DNA of 64,000 nucleotides, from sequence record OK272472.1; one strand, written 5' to 3'. Position numbers and translations under genes: made by a program. This stretch comes from Escherichia phage JLBYU28. The notes beneath the pieces are model-generated. The model saw only the letters and a program-made list of their open reading frames with translations, was not told the DNA's origin and did not search any database. Of this stretch, positions 3,856 to 42,199 are shown one piece after another. The number at the start of each line of letters is the position of its first letter. Positions within the stretch are counted from its first letter, which is position 1.

Positions 3856-4419
3856 TTAACCTAAAAAGTCTTTTAAATTGCGTTCTGTGAGGTTTGCCGT
3901 GATTTTATCCAGTAGGTCGCAATACACAGAGCAATCCCCGCTATTCTGCACAATTTTCGCCATACTTAACAAATCTTCGTCAATATCTCCTAAATTACGG
4001 TTAGCTGTATCAGGTACAAAGAAAGGCGCATATATTGCACTAAATTTCGTCGAGTGAAGGCCAACAATCCAATCCTTATCAAAGTATCCGGTAAAACTGG
4101 CGATATCGCTCATGTTGTCACAAGAATAATCGTCCTCTAGCTCTTCCTCTGGGATATCCATTTCAATGACAATCACGTCCTGCGTTTCCATTTGGAAAGC
4201 TGCCGTAATAAGTCCAGACTCTAAAGCGTTTTGAATGCAGCGTTCACGGATATAAGAATCTTCCTCATCTTCCAGACATTCCGTTTTGATAACCTTGTTC
4301 ATTGGGTAAACGTAGAAACAATCGTCCATGTAGGAGCAGTTCCAGATTCCTTCCGGCTTGTCGCCACCATTCAGCAGGTTTACAAAGTTTTTGAGGGTAG
4401 TTCCGTGATAGCATTTCAT
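3856..4419 (-). CDS. hypothetical early protein (about 187 aa)
   Basis: Track ORF 3856..4434 starts at a TTG inside the family-B cassette; the ATG at 4417-4419 with GGAGAA SD is the likely start. Confidence 0.55.
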   Translation of the reverse strand: MKCYHGTTLKNFVNLLNGGDKPEGIWNCSYMDDCFYVYPMNKVIKTECLEDEEDSYIRERCIQNALESGLITAAFQMETQDVIVIEMDIPEEELEDDYSCDNMSDIASFTGYFDKDWIVGLHSTKFSAIYAPFFVPDTANRNLGDIDEDLLSMAKIVQNSGDCSVYCDLLDKITANLTERNLKDFLG

Positions 4420-4505
4420 TTTTAAGTTCTCCAATTTAGGATTTAGTGGTAAAGCTCTTTATCTGGGGCTTACTTTATCGAACTATAAGCCCCTTGTAAA
4501 GTACT
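4420..4505 (-). promoter_or_regulatory. family-B cassette copy 1 (TTTACA-17-TAAAGT on minus strand overlapped by inverted repeat GGGGCTTA/TAAGCCCC, then GGAGAA SD)
   Basis: ~85-nt element repeated 5 times nearly identically. Confidence 0.5.
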
Positions 4506-21514: not shown

Positions 21515-22000
21515 TTACTCGGCTCTCCATTGACAATCGCCTTGCCACCCATACTCTTTTCTCCAGAGGTTTTGGTTATCAGAACCACGATATGGTTTAA
21601 CTGTTGGTTTAGATGAATCATACTTACCATCAATCACCACGTCAACATATTTCATCACATCTAGGTGAATTTTTTCGTGTAACTGAAAACCTGTCCAGAG
21701 CCAGATAGATTTCTCTGGGTAAACAGTTTTAATACGTTTACATATGTCTGTAACCTCTTGAATATTTCTATCATCCAGAGGTTCTCCACCAAGTATTGAC
21801 AAACCACTGACAGCATTATCACCCATTAGCTGGATGATTCCGTAGAGGTTTGCATAAGTAAATACCTTACCAGCATTAAACTTCCAAGACTCCCTGTTAA
21901 AGCAGCCTTCACAGTGATGCTTACAACCAGCTACGAAGAGGCTTACACGAACCCCTTCACCATTAGCTGTGTCAAATGGTCGAATCTCCATGTAATTCAT
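21515..22000 (-). CDS. nrdG: anaerobic ribonucleotide reductase activating protein (radical SAM)
   Basis: CxxxCxxC motif (CKHHCEGC) near N-terminus; adjacent to nrdD. Confidence 0.8.
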   Translation of the reverse strand: MNYMEIRPFDTANGEGVRVSLFVAGCKHHCEGCFNRESWKFNAGKVFTYANLYGIIQLMGDNAVSGLSILGGEPLDDRNIQEVTDICKRIKTVYPEKSIWLWTGFQLHEKIHLDVMKYVDVVIDGKYDSSKPTVKPYRGSDNQNLWRKEYGWQGDCQWRAE

Positions 22001-23052: not shown

Positions 23053-24021
23053 TTACATAGAGACTCTATCACGAATCTCAGCGATTTTTGCATCGTTCAT
23101 TCGGGATTCACCTTTAATCTTAGTCCATCCAAGATACCCACACACCCTGTTAATCACAGAGATATCATATGAATGGCAAACCTCACACTCTTCCACATCA
23201 GCCTTTGGTCTGTTACCACAATGTTCACAGATTGCTAAGTCAAAGTTAAGTCCTTGATAGAAACCTTTCAACATACCTCTCGTAATACAACTCTTAAGTG
23301 CTGATAAGTTTTCTGGGTTAGCTACTCTTACATACTGGATTCTACCACCTCTACAGATATGGAAGAATGGCTCTTCTAAGTCCTGCTTCTCAAATGGTGA
23401 GATGTCTGCTGCAACATTCATATGGAAACTGTTTGTAAAGTATTCCTTGTCAGAGACACCTTTAATAACGCCAAACATATCTCTGAACTGTTTTAACTGA
23501 GTTCCACAAAGTGATTCTGCTGGAGTGCCATATACCGCATACAAGAAGCCATCTTCGTTCTTAAACTCTTCAGTTTTCATGTTGATGTATTCTAGAACAT
23601 CGTATGCAAAACTACAGCTTCCAACTTCATGAAGTCGTTTACCTTCAGCAAGAACAGATAGCTCATCAAGCGCAGTAACCCCAAAAGAAGCTGTGAAGGA
23701 CTTCACGATATCCCAACCAACCCTGTCAGTAGGTTTCTTATTCCCTTTGTACAGACCACCTTGTGTAAATGCAAGAGGGTTAGAACTTGCTGGCATATTA
23801 GCAATCATTTCGTAACGTTTCTTGTGGAAGCTGCGAATCATTTCTAAGTACTTATCAAGCTCTTTCCAGAAATCTAAGCCATTCTCTTTAGAATACTGGT
23901 AAATCATTGGTAAGTTCAAAGATACAGCACCAATGTTAGCACGACCTACATAAAACTCTTCACCATTCTCGTTATGATATGGTGATAAGAACGCTCTACA
24001 CTTGTTGTTCAGGTAAGTTCG
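23053..24021 (-). CDS. nrdD: anaerobic ribonucleoside-triphosphate reductase NrdD, 3' exon
   Basis: Glycyl-radical motif RVCGYLG and zinc ribbon CEHCG...CEVC; reading frame open upstream of the track start as far as an in-frame TAG at 24022-24024. Confidence 0.8.
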   Translation of the reverse strand, partial: RTYLNNKCRAFLSPYHNENGEEFYVGRANIGAVSLNLPMIYQYSKENGLDFWKELDKYLEMIRSFHKKRYEMIANMPASSNPLAFTQGGLYKGNKKPTDRVGWDIVKSFTASFGVTALDELSVLAEGKRLHEVGSCSFAYDVLEYINMKTEEFKNEDGFLYAVYGTPAESLCGTQLKQFRDMFGVIKGVSDKEYFTNSFHMNVAADISPFEKQDLEEPFFHICRGGRIQYVRVANPENLSALKSCITRGMLKGFYQGLNFDLAICEHCGNRPKADVEECEVCHSYDISVINRVCGYLGWTKIKGESRMNDAKIAEIRDRVSM

Positions 24022-24313
24022 CTAAGCTTACCCCGCTTTATTCAAGCTGCTTACTGTCGCCAGTAAGTCCAGACTATATCTTCTACTTATTTCTAAGTAG
24101 CGTACCATTTCGAGTCGCTTGACCCTACACCGCTACATTCATCACGGTTAGTCGTTCGGCATTTAGATGTATTCAAACTCATATTCGAAGTTATTTGGCA
24201 TGTAAGACTCCTATGTTGTATAGTTTCTTACATCATACACCATTTAGCACAGGATTGTCTACATCTGTAGAGTTTCCCTGTTTAGGCACGTTTTAGATGA
24301 GCTATAGAGCTTG
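24022..24313 (-). other. putative group I intron interrupting nrdD (5' boundary not resolved)
   Basis: Non-coding gap inside a single gene; minus-strand GACUA (in aacgactaacc) and UAGUC (in atatagtctgg) candidates for P7, followed by stem-loops and a terminal G. Confidence 0.55.
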
Positions 24314-25513
24314 TTAACCCATCGGTGAAATTACCTTACCAGAACGCTCAAAAGCCTCTGCTACAGCACCATGACCAGATACACTTAAGAAGTCTGGATA
24401 CATTGCTTTAGAGCAACACTCAATGGCTTTACTGTACAGGTGACCTTGACAAATATTCTCATCATGTCTCTTCTGGTCATAGATATAAACCAGTTTAGGA
24501 AATACAACCGGTTTTTTGCTCTTACCTTGTCCGTTCATACGAACATCTAGGAGAGTACTTGCAATCATATATTGCAGTCGGTTATCTTCATTAGACATAT
24601 CTGAGTCAAGTAACCCGAATGTCAAAGTTGTAAATGCAAAATCCCCACGGCTACAAGGTACGGTATTTAGTTTCATCTCAAGTGACTGAAAACCTTGAGT
24701 CAGTTCAATTTGTAACTGCTCCATTACATAGTTATGGTAATGTTCTTTAGGAATACCGTAAGATGCTGCTTTCTCAGCATGATAGCGTAGAGACTTCTTA
24801 GCATACGGTACAAGCACCTTATCAATCTCTGCTAAAGTAAATCCACCAAATTGCTGTGCAGTTGCTGAAAGAACTACATCACCAATAACCTGTAAGGCTG
24901 ACAGCACAGACTTCGGTTCACAGTATTCAATGCCAGACATTTCAAAGCCACCTTTCAGTACTTTACCGATGTCAAACAGGCAACAGTTGATACCACCAAA
25001 AATTAGGTCTCTTAAGTCATGGATGTAGATAAACCCTTTTTCAATGGCTTCGAGTTCCTCTGGTGTTAAATGGTATTGTTTAAAGATTTCTTTAGTCAGA
25101 TAGCCACGAATAATTGAACCTTTTGTAGAAATTAAACTGCTGTCAAAGTTAGCATTTTCACGGTCACCTAAGAAGAGTGTATCCTTAGTCTTCTGGTAAA
25201 GTTCATCCCAATTTTGAGCAACCTCTTTACGGTAATTTCTATACGTTGAGTAAGACTCATAAATCTCGTGATTGACTTCTGCCAAAGCACCCTCAACAAT
25301 ACTGTGAATATCATTTACTGAAACGAGTAAATTATTCTGCTTAGTAGATTTTACCAGAATCCTCATAAATGCTGACTCAAGAGCTTGAGTAACATCTGGT
25401 GGAAGCTCTTTATAACCAACTCTGTTAGCTGACTTTGTGACTGCTGCTAAAACTTTTTTGATATCAGGTTCTTCGAGTGAGCCATTCTTTTTAATAATCT
25501 GTACTTTGTTCAT
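24314..25513 (-). CDS. nrdD: anaerobic ribonucleoside-triphosphate reductase NrdD, 5' exon (ORF as seen; true splice donor lies upstream of the in-frame stop)
   Basis: N-terminal ATP-cone-like region; same protein as the downstream exon. Confidence 0.75.
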   Translation of the reverse strand: MNKVQIIKKNGSLEEPDIKKVLAAVTKSANRVGYKELPPDVTQALESAFMRILVKSTKQNNLLVSVNDIHSIVEGALAEVNHEIYESYSTYRNYRKEVAQNWDELYQKTKDTLFLGDRENANFDSSLISTKGSIIRGYLTKEIFKQYHLTPEELEAIEKGFIYIHDLRDLIFGGINCCLFDIGKVLKGGFEMSGIEYCEPKSVLSALQVIGDVVLSATAQQFGGFTLAEIDKVLVPYAKKSLRYHAEKAASYGIPKEHYHNYVMEQLQIELTQGFQSLEMKLNTVPCSRGDFAFTTLTFGLLDSDMSNEDNRLQYMIASTLLDVRMNGQGKSKKPVVFPKLVYIYDQKRHDENICQGHLYSKAIECCSKAMYPDFLSVSGHGAVAEAFERSGKVISPMG

Positions 25514-38437: not shown

Positions 38438-38694
38438 GTAAGCCTCTTTTAAGTAACTATTAAGTTTTAATCTTTTATCTTAACGTATACTATACGTTAT
38501 ACTTTAAAGCTTTTTAAAAGCTATTAAATAATCTTTTAAGAGTTTTAAAGTATCTGTATAGTTAAACTGTTAAGTAACCTTTTAAGTAAAAACCCACTTC
38601 GCAAAGATTAACACCTTGTCAAGTACATTGTCAACTTGCTTTTTATAATTTTTTGCAGTAATGTATGTGGTTAATGATTTTAGAGGGAGTAAAA
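38438..38694. promoter_or_regulatory. divergent intergenic control region with 17-bp palindrome AACGTATA-C-TATACGTT (38482-38498)
   Basis: Strand-switch point between minus and plus blocks; AT-rich with TTAAG words. Confidence 0.45.
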
Positions 38695-40837
38695 ATGGAA
38701 AACGTAGATTTTAAAAACTTACATTTAGTTGGTGATACAGAAACTGATGGTTTACTCCTTGAGTTCACTAAAGTTCACGTAATGGCCTTTGCAGACTATA
38801 AATCTGACGATGAAGAGCCACCTGTATGGGTCTTTACAGATGAGCCTATCCTCGGTCACAAGTACACCAAGTACATTAAGGGTGGCTTACGTGAAGGTAT
38901 TGAGTTTGCGTTAAAGGCAAAACGTCTTTGCATCCACAACGGTCTCGGTTATGACTGGTGGGTTTTCAATCACATTGCACCTGATTTATGGAACTTTGAT
39001 AATCCAAAGTGTAAACCGTGGAGTAATTTCTTTCAGGATTCTCTTATCCAGTCTCGTGTTCAGTGGATGGATAGACCAACTCCAAAGGGTTATAAAGGTG
39101 CTCATGGTTTGGCTGCATGGGGTGCTCGTGTTGGTGTTCGTAAACCAGAGATTGAACATTGGGGTGTATGGAATGCAGAAATCTTCACTCGTGTTGTAGA
39201 AGATATACGTATTAACGCCAAAACTAAACGTGCACTTGATAACGAGTATCTCAAGCTTAAGAAGTGTGGCATAGACACTTATGAAACCTACATGCGAGCT
39301 AAAGAGACATCTTTCTGGATGAGCCAGCAAGCTATTAATGGCTGGAAAGCTGATAAAGAGCTTATGGAGTTCCATGTAAAGGAACTTGACAAGTTGACTA
39401 ATGAGCTTGCTTCAGAGGTTGAACCACATCTACCTCCAACTATTAAGACCAAAGGTAAAGTCACTGGAGAAGAGTTTGCAAAAGCTTGGAATGAGTATGT
39501 TGAAACATTTGGTCATGCAGATGGACTGAAGAGGATTACCAAGTATCCTAAGACAAAGTATCGTCAACAGGTGCGTAACGGTGAGATGCAGACATACGAA
39601 ATCAAGCCATTTGGTAAGCCAACTACAAAGATTTTTAACATTGAAAAGAGAAATTGCTATACACCAACCAACTCTGTAACTGGTGAAGAGTACAAGGAAG
39701 GTTTTGTAGCAATGAAGGATGCTCGTGCAATTTGCAATGAGTTGAATGCAAAGATTGGTAAGAAATGCAAAGACTGGAAGCCAGTAAAAACAGTCAAAAC
39801 TGTGAAGTACTATAACAGCCACGTTGTTAACCACTTTGAACTTGAGTCAAGTCGCTACACAGGATTGATTGATGCACCATATACACCAATTGAGTTTGAA
39901 GTTTCTCGTATGACTCAGGTAGCAGTTGTAAAAGACTACTTGAAATCAGTTGGTTGGATTCCAGATGACTGGAACTACAAGAAAGACTCAGACGGTCGCC
40001 CTGTCAAAGTTTGTCGTTTCAAAGACAATAAAAAGATGATTACAAAACATCCTAAGTGGCAGGAGATGGTTGAGCGGTGTGGTTTGAGCTATGTTGAGCA
40101 CGAAGGTGTACAGTATATCGAGCATAACTGGTCTGTGAAGAAGTACACAGATTTGCTTGAATCTTGCTTAATCCGTACTTCACCAAAACTTACTGAGTCA
40201 TCTTATGATACGATTGAAGGTGAACTTGGACAGAAGATTGCAAAGTACTATACTTTGATGCACCGACGCAGAACTATTGAGAACTCAAAGGATGATGAAA
40301 AAGGTTGGTTGAACCAGATTCGTCCTGATGGTCGCCTTAGTGCTGGTGCAATGGTGTTTGGTACTTCAACTGGACGTATGACACAATATGGTATTGTAAA
40401 CGTACCGTCTGGTGCTGCTGTCTATGGAGCACCTATGAGGGAGGTTTGGATTTGCGAGGAAGGGACTAATATCGTTTCAGTTGACCAGAACTCTGCACAG
40501 CTTGTTTTACTGTGTAACTTTATGGGTGATAAAGAGTTCACTAAAGCGGTAACTGAAGGTAAAGAGTCAGTAGAATTTACCAAGCGAGAAGATGGGAGGT
40601 ATTATTGCAAACATCTTGATAAGTACCTTAATCCAGAAACTGATAAGTATCTTCGTTATGATGCTGAGAATGACCTCTATGAAGTCTACACAGGGACTGA
40701 TGCGCATACACTGAATAGTATTTACTTTGGTCTTAACAAAGAAGAGGATATTGTTCATTGCAGGGAGACACAGGATGAGGAACTTCTCCACGAGATTACA
40801 AAAGGTCGTAAGAAAGCCAAAAATGGCATTTATGCGT
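38695..40837 (+). CDS. DNA polymerase (family A), exon 1
   Basis: 3'-5' exonuclease Exo I motif LVGDTETDG; motif B begins RKKAKNGIYA before the frame is interrupted; ATG at 38695 with GAGGGAG SD. Confidence 0.8.
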
Positions 40838-41105
40838 CAGTGGCGCATGTAAAACGTTGTGAATTGCTGGAAGCCTAAGTCTGTAAAGATATGGTAATCA
40901 GCAGCGAAGCCTCTTAAGAGGAACGTTCAGAGACTATCGAAAAGCATACTTAATGTATGAACTGAGTAGAGTAGGGTGGTAAGCTAATGACCATTCCCAA
41001 GTGCAACGGTAGTATTACTACTACGTGATATAGTCCGACACTCCGTAGAAATGCGGAGAAGTTCATAAGAGAACTGGTACACCTTGCGAGTGTATTGACC
41101 AGATG
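40838..41105 (+). other. group I intron (268 nt) in DNA polymerase motif B
   Basis: 7-bp P1 between exon end UAUGCGU (40831-40837) and intron GCGCAUG (40843-40849) with U-G at the splice site; GACUA/UAGUC P7 candidates; terminal G at 41105; splicing restores AKNGIYALLFGAGDEK. Confidence 0.7.
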
Positions 41106-41662
41106 TATTGTTCGGTGCAGGTGATGAGAAGTTTGCCAAAACCATTAAGGCAGCTTCTACAGAAGAAGGTGCATTGACTAAGCAGACCTACTATATGCGT
41201 CTGCCAAAGATTAAGAAGTTACTTGATAGCTTAGAAGCCGATTTTAAGGCGTCTAAAAAGGCTCTGGAAGAGGTTTTTGGGAAGAATTCTTCAATTGCTA
41301 AAGGTGGTTATATCAGGGTTGCTGGAGCATGGATATGGTGCAAATCTCCACATAAACTACTGAACTACCTCCTGATGAGTTCGGAAGCACAGATTCAGAA
41401 TGAGGCCATCAACCTAGCAGCAAGAAAAGCCTGTGAAGATGGCCTGACAAAACTGAATGCTCGAAAACCAGCTATCGGAGCAAGGTTACTTCTGGCATAT
41501 CACGATGAAAATAGTTGGGAATGTCCAGAGGGTATGACACATGATATGAAAGCAATTGCTGACTGGATGTATGGACAAGCTTCAAAAAACTTAGGTTTGA
41601 GGAAAGAAACACTTGTAACTGGTACAGCAAAGGTTGGTAAGTCGTGGTATGAGGTACATTGA
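41106..41662 (+). CDS. DNA polymerase (family A), exon 2
   Basis: Continues motif B (LFGAGDEK) and carries motif C (LLAYHDE). Confidence 0.8.
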
Positions 41663-41665
41663 TTA

Positions 41666-42199
41666 ATGGATTTTATTTCACAAAAACGTTTAAAGGAGCT
41701 ACTACACTATGACCCCGAAACAGGGGTCTTTACTTGGCTTCGTAGAGAAGGTAAATCAAGAGCTGTTAGTGTTTTTAACAGTAACTATGCAGGAAAGGTA
41801 GCAGGTAATGTTCAGACAGATTCAACTGGTCATAAACAGATTAGTATCTATTTTGACAAGAAAGCACATAAAGCACACAGACTCGCATGGCTTTATGTAT
41901 ATGGCAAGATGCCAAAAGGTATCATTGACCATATCAACGGAGACTCTCTTGACAACAGGATTGTAAACTTAAGGGAAGCAGATGATTTTCAAAGTGCTTG
42001 GAATAAAGGTAAACCAGTCACCAATAAATCTGGGTACAAAGGTGTAAGTCTTAAGAAGAAGTCTGGTAAGTGGGTCGCACAGATAAGTTATAAAGGTAAG
42101 AAGATGTTTTTAGGTCACCATGACACGCCTGAAGAAGCCCATAAAGATTACTGTGAAGCTGCTATGAAACTCCACGGAGAGTTTGCAAAACTAAGTTGA
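41666..42199 (+). CDS. HNH homing endonuclease with AP2 DNA-binding domain
   Basis: HNH block IDHINGDSLDNRIVNLREA; AP2-like GYKGVSLKKKSGKWVAQISYKGKKMFLGHHDTPEEAHKDY. Confidence 0.8.
   Translation: MDFISQKRLKELLHYDPETGVFTWLRREGKSRAVSVFNSNYAGKVAGNVQTDSTGHKQISIYFDKKAHKAHRLAWLYVYGKMPKGIIDHINGDSLDNRIVNLREADDFQSAWNKGKPVTNKSGYKGVSLKKKSGKWVAQISYKGKKMFLGHHDTPEEAHKDYCEAAMKLHGEFAKLS

Follow-up and report, generated by a model that had tools for sequence, protein, structure and literature searches.

A predicted T-even-type group I intron beside the catalytic-cysteine codon of nrdD in a Felixounavirus

Arrangement of the nrdD locus

Comparative analysis indicated that nrdD of this Felix O1-like Felixounavirus is very probably interrupted, just before the codon of the catalytic cysteine, by an IA2-like group I intron of 316 nt that is of the T-even type and predicted to be self-splicing. 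The window, by which we mean the whole stretch of DNA analysed, is 64,000 nt long. The main features are listed by window position.

24317..25513, minus: nrdD exon 1, codons 1-399, covering the ATP-cone plus the N-terminal portion of the NRDD domain; ends in CCG AUG GGU
24001..24316, minus: predicted group I intron, 316 nt, IA2-like, without a full ORF; intron nt i is window position 24317 - i
24163..24212, minus: remnant of a homing-endonuclease gene in the P6a loop, from alignment with UAB_Phi87
24022..24024, minus: in-frame UAG, eight codons 5' of exon 2
24001, minus: terminal G (omega-G) at the 3' splice site, boundary set by the intron-less allele
23053..24000, minus: nrdD exon 2, codons 400-714 and stop; the first codon, UGU, is Cys400
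21515..22000, minus: nrdG, 161 aa, the NrdD-activating partner, downstream of nrdD and likewise oriented; the name comes from a homologue in UAB_Phi87 that is annotated as nrdG

The unspliced gene appears as two minus-strand ORFs. The upstream one (25513-24314) encodes 399 aa followed by a stop, and the downstream one (23919-23053) encodes 288 aa from a TTG start. The original prediction had described an N-terminal ATP-cone ORF and a C-terminal ORF with a glycyl-radical motif and zinc ribbon, and both were found: in the spliced product, Pfam assigned residues 5-97 to the ATP-cone and residues 119-712 to the NRDD domain, and exon 2 contains RVCGYLG and a CxxC...CxxC zinc ribbon. The presence of nrdG shows that nothing else is missing from the class III system.

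Splice sites and the restored protein

The intron boundaries were taken from intron-less alleles and protein alignment, not from the ends of the Rfam match. The Rfam limits (24400-24050) were rejected as boundaries; the model puts P1 inside exon 1 (24400-24317) and stops before P9.1 and P9.2. In the intron-less allele MK965969, the sequence GGGT/TGTAGAG (the slash marks the junction) is uninterrupted and contiguous exactly at the predicted junction. A synthetic spliced junction likewise gave unbroken matches to many intron-less Felixounavirus records. The 5' splice site, left unplaced in the original prediction, falls between U 24317 and position 24316, and the intron ends in G at 24001, as stated there. 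The gap of about 290 nt reported there is correct as the distance from the stop at 24314 to the opening of the frame after TAG 24024-24022, and the intron itself measures 316 nt.

The predicted ligated junction reads ...CCGATGGGT/TGTAGAGCG..., and the spliced protein has 714 aa. It aligned without gaps over ...SPMG/CRAFLSPY... with PDB 9d3x and T4 NrdD (1h78). At the junction, Gly399 is followed by Cys400, the equivalent of Cys290 in T4 NrdD. The predicted intron therefore directly adjoins an active-site codon.

Secondary structure and group I class

The structural elements of the predicted intron are as follows.

24297..24307, minus: internal guide CUAUA-GCUCAU, intron nt 10-20, read from the sequence
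GCUCAU with exon 1 end AUGGGU 24322-24317, minus: P1, 92.9% paired in seven introns
CUAUA with exon 2 start UGUAG 24000-23996, minus: P10, read from the sequence
CGUGCC 24290-24285 with GGUACG 24106-24101, minus: P3, compensatory changes in five of six pairs; encloses P4, P5, P6 and P6a
24281-24276 with 24254-24249, minus: P4, from the covariation alignment and energy fold
24271-24267 with 24262-24258, minus: P5, from the covariation alignment and energy fold
24248-24247 with 24160-24159, minus: P6, from the covariation alignment and energy fold
24241-24235 with 24172-24166, minus: P6a, compensatory changes in six of seven pairs
24233-24226 with 24207-24200, minus: P6b hairpin, from the fold; contains the AUG of the remnant ORF
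GACUA 24153-24149 with UAGUC 24076-24072, minus: P7, pseudoknotted with P3, invariant in seven introns
ACCG 24148-24145 with CGGU 24132-24129, minus: P7.1, covaries
GGGUC 24125-24121 with GACUC 24116-24112, minus: P7.2, covaries
24100-24083, minus: P8, GAAA loop, covaries
24067-24050, minus: P9, GCGA loop, in the peripheral 3' domain (24012..24067)
24047-24035, minus: P9.1, weakly supported, outside the Rfam model (which ends at 24050)
24032-24012, minus: P9.2, GGUAAG with CUUACC, covaries, outside the Rfam model

The intron matched Rfam RF00028 with 53.9 bits (E 6.9e-11), only about 4 bits above the gathering score of 50. The same model gave 60.4 bits for the RPN213 variant and 105.3 bits for the T4 nrdD intron. 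At the gathering threshold it gave no match on the endonuclease-bearing copies L001 and L005. This can presumably be attributed to the 426-500-nt ORF in their P6a loop, so that the missing match reflects the model and does not speak against an intron.

The minimum-free-energy z-score was -3.49, and an energy-only fold gave back P3 to P6a, P7.1, P7.2, P8, P9 and P9.2. A structure of 75 pairs (P1 to P10 with P7.1 and P7.2, and no P2) was then compared across seven related phage introns, namely T4 td, T4 nrdD, three other phage introns and two Felixounavirus rows. It was 93.6% paired, as against 33-41% in slid controls, with 33 double-sided pair changes as against 3-8, although the derivation of the structure from the window sequence and the hand trimming somewhat favoured the unshifted register. 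The ORFs had been trimmed by hand from five of the seven sequences, with the P6b/ORF region cut out of both Felixounavirus rows. None of 500 shuffles reached the observed pairing and covariation values. P10 could be assessed solely in introns of the same nrdD site, that is, in this lineage and in HMD-6, where the exon likewise begins with UGUAG. An alternative pairing for P9.1 (AGCUU with AAGCU) was dropped in favour of the covarying P9.2.

The P7-like elements GACUA...UAGUC of the original prediction do form P7, which encloses P7.1, P7.2, the 3' strand of P3, and P8. The motif was set aside as sole evidence, with two matches in the window against 2.35 expected. The features that place the element in group I are the RF00028 match, the P3-P8 core with its P3/P7 pseudoknot, the P1 with a U·G pair between the last base of exon 1 (24317) and a guide-sequence G, the P10, the omega-G and the restored coding sequence. 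Together with the covariation and the contiguous intron-less alleles, these bear out the putative group I intron. The subgroup was assigned from the extra hairpins P7.1 and P7.2 (intron nt 169-205), which follow the 5' strand of P7 and precede the 3' strand of P3, and from a core homologous to the T4 introns, with 71-82% identity to those of td and nrdD. The P7.1/P7.2 arrangement is what we take to be the IA2 hallmark in the Michel-Westhof classification.

Proposed splicing

The splicing steps proposed here follow from the sequence and established group I intron chemistry. In the primary transcript, P1 would form between the guide GCUCAU and AUGGGU at the end of exon 1. P7 would bind a free guanosine, which would attack 3' of the exon 1 U, and P10, formed by CUAUA with UGUAG, would position exon 2. 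The released exon 1 would then attack after the terminal G, joining GGU (Gly399) to UGU (Cys400) to yield the 714-aa NrdD. Without splicing, only a 399-aa fragment would be produced, because the intron begins with UAA, a stop for translation of the unspliced RNA.

Alternative explanations

It is improbable that the intron is a dead relic whose core no longer splices, leaving nrdD a pseudogene in the carrier phages. The endonuclease gene has already decayed, the Rfam score is near threshold, and NrdD might be dispensable in phages that have aerobic nrdAB. However, the core helices are all intact, with P7 and J8/7 matching exactly those of the T4 introns proven to self-splice. The spliced ORF of 714 codons was open in all 15 intron-carrying alleles examined. 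Among these, at 88-95% nucleotide identity, synonymous codon differences outnumbered non-synonymous ones by about 5:1 in both exons. From the intact ORFs and this ratio, nrdD is apparently under selection. The retention of nrdG also argues against decay.

Still less credible is a truly split nrdD, with the two ORFs translated separately and the active enzyme assembled without splicing. Most GenBank records do annotate two CDSs, and a precedent has been reported in the mobE-split NrdA of Aeromonas phage Aeh1 (cited in PMC3653736). Here, however, exon 1 ends at Gly399 and the earliest start of the downstream ORF is the TTG at 23919, so that Cys400 and the next 27 conserved residues are absent from both polypeptides. 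The exon 2 frame has stops 10 and 8 codons ahead of the junction, and between the second of these (UAG 24024-24022) and the Cys400 codon there is no AUG, GUG or UUG. Exon 2 with its catalytic Cys is thus untranslatable unless the RNA is spliced. The spacer, moreover, is a covarying group I fold.

We give practically no weight to other accounts, such as an intein, translational bypassing or an assembly artefact, and found nothing in their favour. Stops in both exon frames (the exon 1 frame stops at the first codon of the intron) exclude an intein, the 316-nt insert has a group I fold, and its occurrence in 93 independent phage records excludes an assembly artefact.

Endonuclease remnant and signs of mobility

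Within the P6a loop of the predicted intron, the remnant retains a Shine-Dalgarno AGGAG (24212-24208), an AUG (24201-24199), a 12-codon ORF (MPNNFEYEFEYI) and a stop (24165-24163). Compared with the 154-aa HNH ORF of relatives, which carries Pfam HNH_3 and NUMOD domains when complete, the window copy has lost 426 nt in frame. Among Felixounaviruses, nrdD was found without an intron, with the 316-nt intron, with a 292-nt variant, or with a 742-nt form that encodes the 154-aa HNH endonuclease in its P6a loop. Felixounaviruses also carry aerobic nrdAB.

We compared 20 intron-less loci with 14 carriers at the same site. Divergence between the two groups peaked at 22% in exon 2 nt 0-39 and was 2-5% further out in exon 2. 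The window copy encodes no endonuclease, only the 12-codon remnant; presence or absence at an identical site among relatives, together with an altered flanking exon, was observed. The variable occupancy of one site and the exon 2 divergence peak may be taken as signs of mobility. A putative co-conversion tract would cover roughly the first 55 nt of exon 2. The relatives suggest that the ancestor would have been a 742-nt mobile intron with an I-HmuI-like HNH endonuclease in its P6a loop. A 426-nt in-frame deletion would then have taken all but 12 endonuclease codons, leaving the ORF-less descendant.

Comparison with known phage introns

The closest relatives are in the Felixounaviruses JohannRWettstein/Bas63 (MZ501086), UAB_Phi87 and FSL SP-010/012. 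These have the same insertion site, and the shared 316 nt are 95-99.7% identical. Their copies are 742 nt long and carry the 154-aa HNH_3 and NUMOD endonuclease, whereas the window copy keeps 12 codons of it.

The nrdD introns of the Vequintavirus-like phage HMD-6 and of Vibrio phage 355E48.1 occupy the same Gly/Cys site, with cores about 71-79% identical to ours. Both contain an intact HNH_3 and I-HmuI-NUMOD-like ORF in the P6a loop; they differ in belonging to other phage lineages and in their divergent peripheral helices. In both phages nrdD is annotated merely as split or fragmented. One tentative reading, to which we give somewhat less than an even chance, is that the Gly/Cys-site intron forms a distinct, undescribed T-even-type lineage spread by I-HmuI-like HNH endonucleases among Felixounavirus, Vequintavirus-like coliphages and marine Vibrio phages, with all homing stages present at once. 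In that same joint reading, the stages would be the empty site, the endonuclease-bearing intron, two independent losses of the endonuclease gene by deletion, and ORF-less copies in divergent exon backgrounds. If this were true, these last copies would point to mobilisation in trans or by recombination.

The T4 nrdD (sunY) intron, which encodes I-TevII, lies in the same host gene. Its core is 82% identical over nt 14-75 and 75% identical over nt 152-273, and it shares the guide GCUCAU, P7.1/P7.2 and the absence of P2. Identity of site was rejected, as it is inserted at the equivalent of 280/281, 119 codons from 399/400. Its ORF encodes a GIY-YIG enzyme and lies 3' of the core in P9.1 (PMC2988022), not an HNH enzyme in P6a. 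The window intron may derive directly from it by transposition, as the common guide and similar 5' exon ends (AUGGGU and AUGAGU) would suggest; against this, the introns of td, HMD-6 and the Vibrio phage show comparable identity to it.

The T4 td intron, with I-TevI, is 71% identical in the 3' half and likewise has its ORF in the P6a loop. Its RNA hairpin over the endonuclease start region (PMC2988022) has a counterpart here in P6b. It differs in its host gene (thymidylate synthase), the presence of P2 and its GIY-YIG endonuclease. The T4 nrdB intron, like the one described here, still interrupts a ribonucleotide reductase gene after a large deletion in its HNH gene, I-TevIII (PMC2988022). The gene and site are different, and the deletion in the window intron leaves only 12 codons.

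Previous annotation and significance

In most public Felixounavirus genomes, nrdD is annotated as two proteins, in some cases with an intervening endonuclease gene. In GenBank MZ501086 the two pieces are joined into one CDS that encloses the endonuclease gene, and for JohannRWettstein/Bas63 a single intron is entered in the BASEL S5 table. Our literature search for a group I intron explicitly described in Felixounavirus or Ounavirinae nrdD returned just split-gene, ncRNA-scan and table mentions. One paper describes nrdD as 'split by a homing endonuclease' (PMC4837284), another, from scanning phage SPJ41 for ncRNAs, mentions 'two introns' in unspecific terms (PMC9951933), and the paper on the Felix O1 genome describes these genes as free of insertions (PMC3185647).

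The intron is real but an ordinary phage element of an already annotated kind; its novelty is low, and it reveals no new element type or mechanism. Its main value is practical, as the exact predicted splice sites allow the CDS to be joined correctly, with the catalytic Cys included. The locus also offers a tidy natural example of the homing-intron life cycle, with invasion, endonuclease loss (at least two independent deletions) and coexisting empty sites.

The two introns proposed for this window were both recovered, the other within the DNA polymerase gene (40775-41058, plus strand), where RF00028 scored 64.2 bits. The suggested parallel with T-even phages holds in that the nrdD intron is homologous to those of T4 td and nrdD. 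It has to be amended on two points: the codon differs from that of the T4 nrdD intron, and the DNA polymerase gene is uninterrupted in T4.

Splice sites of the nrdD intron

The window comes from a Felix O1-like myovirus, and many Felixounavirus genomes are 94-96% identical to it across all of 23053-25513. The large subunit of the anaerobic ribonucleotide reductase is encoded jointly by two ORFs in this region:

25513-24314, minus strand, upstream nrdD ORF (399 codons)
23919-23053, minus strand, downstream nrdD ORF (288 codons)

The original prediction of a group I intron in nrdD proved correct and well supported, and is useful for annotation. The Rfam group I intron model RF00028 matched 24400-24050 on the minus strand with 53.9 bits (E 6.9e-11; curated threshold, 50), an intron-less allele is contiguous, and the fold covaries. 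Read backwards from the second ORF, the downstream frame continues as ...NNK CRAFLSPYHNENGEEFYVGRANIGAVSLNLP. Joining 24317 (exon 1 end) to 24000 (exon 2 start) gave a 714-aa protein, ...KVISPMG|CRAFLSPY..., in which Pfam recognized an ATP-cone and a full-length NRDD domain. This product aligned without gaps over the junction to the solved NrdD structures 9d3x (E 6e-78) and 1h78 of T4 (E 3e-75). The junction cysteine, Cys400, corresponds to T4 Cys290 in the numbering of the alignment to 1h78, which is the thiyl-radical cysteine. In the intron-less sister phage MK965969, the DNA runs unbroken through the junction (...CCGATGGGT|TGTAGAGC...), and the insertions that relatives have at this point measure exactly 316, 292 or 742 nt. 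The boundary is ambiguous by one base, as T starts both the intron and exon 2; we chose the position that follows the group I rules, with U at the 3' end of the exon and G at the 3' end of the intron. Together with the intron-less allele and the protein alignment, these rules therefore define the intron as 24316-24001 (316 nt).

Structure of the intron

The guide sequence CUAUA-GCUCAU occupies intron nt 10-20. In P1, the AUGGGU at the end of exon 1 pairs with GCUCAU, placing a U·G pair at the splice site, and in P10 the first five bases of exon 2, UGUAG, pair with CUAUA. The core comprises P3, P4, P5, P6/P6a, P7, P7.1, P7.2, P8, P9, P9.1 and P9.2, with GAAA and GCGA loops on P8 and P9; P2 is absent. 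The GACUA...UAGUC elements, suspected from the outset to be P7-like, do form P7 of this core, and as a motif alone are no better than chance. An energy-only fold (z = -3.49) recovered all core helices except the pseudoknotted P7, with P9.1 in the centroid structure only.

We aligned the window intron with its endonuclease-carrying Felixounavirus form, T4 td, T4 nrdD, and the nrdD introns of Mosigvirus, HMD-6 and Vibrio phage 355E48.1, after trimming the ORFs. Over 75 proposed pairs, 93.6% of cells held standard pairs, compared with 33-41% when the partners were slid by 1-3 columns; both partners had changed in 33 pairs, whereas the slid controls gave 3-8 such pairs. None of 500 shuffles reached the observed values. 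Covariation was found at 5-6 positions in each of P3, P6a and P9.2.

An 8-bp hairpin, P6b, was also seen at 24233-24200 (minus strand; AUGUAAGA/UCUUACAU). The AUG that opens an endonuclease remnant has its first two bases within this hairpin, whose loop holds the Shine-Dalgarno sequence. The hairpin resembles the translational control hairpins of T4 intron endonucleases (PMC2988022).

Requirement for splicing

Translation running on from exon 1 would meet UAA as the first codon of the intron. On the other side, the frame of exon 2 is closed by a UAA and a UAG lying 10 and 8 codons ahead of Cys400, and no AUG, GUG or UUG occurs between them and exon 2. Without splicing, Cys400 and the conserved segment that follows would be missing from both products, which argues against an enzyme of two polypeptides. 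Nor does the interrupted gene look like a pseudogene: the 714-codon spliced ORF was intact in 15 of 15 intron-carrying alleles examined, their codon differences, summed over pairs, were mostly synonymous (6654 versus 1174 non-synonymous in exon 1; 4311 versus 871 in exon 2), and nrdG lies downstream. We infer from the sequence that the nrdD transcript would be spliced.

Loss of the endonuclease gene

UAB_Phi87 and many other relatives carry the 742-nt intron, whose P6a loop contains an ORF of 154 aa that matches HNH_3 and, weakly, NUMOD1. What remains of this gene in the window is its Shine-Dalgarno sequence, AUG and three codons, followed in frame by the final nine codons and the stop. This equals a 426-nt deletion from the 742-nt form, with AAT at both edges, while a separate 450-nt deletion produced the 292-nt intron of RPN213. 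Loss of the endonuclease gene has therefore occurred on at least two occasions. Among the 34 Felixounavirus-type loci that we examined, 20 were intron-less, and 10, 3 and 1 carried the 742-, 316- and 292-nt forms, respectively. In the phage collection, 80% or more of the intron was present in 93 records, and the spliced junction was matched by 237.

Divergence between intron-plus and intron-minus alleles was 22% over the opening 40 nt of exon 2, fell to 9% over the next 40 and was 2-5% further out; on the exon 1 side, the 40 nt before the junction differed by 5%. Such a peak is the pattern expected if homing had led to co-conversion by a diverged donor and the break lay on the side of exon 2.

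Comparison with known introns

The nrdD intron is not new: it belongs to a textbook class, of which it is an ordinary example. GenBank MZ501086 (BASEL phage Bas63) presents nrdD as a two-piece joined CDS over 2887 nt with an endonuclease gene inside, a length consistent with a 742-nt intron added to 2145 nt of coding sequence. One intron is entered for Bas63 in the BASEL S5 table. Earlier papers described nrdD as 'split by a homing endonuclease' (PMC4837284; PMC3728262), and the Felix O1 genome paper did not report an insertion in these genes (PMC3185647). Our literature search found no paper giving splice sites, structure or ORF-less forms of the Felixounavirus nrdD intron, and in most records the annotation is still that of two genes.

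The intron core shows 71-82% identity to the introns of T4 nrdD and td alike, and it shares GCUCAU and the absence of P2 with the former. The T4 nrdD intron (1033 nt by the boundaries set here; ORF 3' of the core) lies at a different site, which corresponds to residue 280|281 and is 119 codons upstream. At the Gly|Cys site of the window intron, the Vequintavirus-like coliphage HMD-6 and Vibrio phage 355E48.1 also have homologous introns that contain HNH ORFs. The nrdD of 355E48.1 is annotated as three fragments, with a further break of ~117 nt between parts 2 and 3 (4333-4451), which may reflect a small intron, a frameshift or a sequencing error.

A 42-nt segment, intron nt 151-192 (window 24166-24125; J6/7, the P7 5' strand and P7.1), has mostly unannotated matches of 97-98% identity in one Vibrio phage and in many phages of T-even type (Mosigvirus/Tequatrovirus) or Vequintavirus-like. 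The match in Mosigvirus KAW3E185 falls inside the nrdD intron at the T4-type site, in a record whose nrdD exons are unannotated. The closest full-length matches to the window nrdD region (96%) were MG065664 and MG065668, which bear the name 'Campylobacter phage A132/A126'. In these records the region is unannotated and Felixounavirus-like, and they are therefore probably mislabelled or mixed assemblies.

A second intron in the window

A permissive Rfam scan of the window (E up to 0.1) returned one weak unrelated match and no group I matches beyond that in nrdD and a second one at 40775-41058 (plus strand, 64.2 bits). The features at this locus are:

40838-41105, plus strand, second group I intron, interrupting a family A DNA polymerase gene (38665-41662)
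41666-42199, plus strand, 177-aa ORF directly after DNA polymerase exon 2

Joining 40837 to 41106 gave a single open frame, ...KNGIYA|LLFGAGDEKF.... The synthetic junction matched in one piece in intron-less Felixounavirus records and was split by a 268-nt insertion in intron carriers. Some records matched only half of the query, suggesting that they carry a larger insertion at this site. The 177-aa ORF has the HINGD...N motif that is typical of HNH endonucleases, and thus probably represents a free-standing homing endonuclease beside the second intron.
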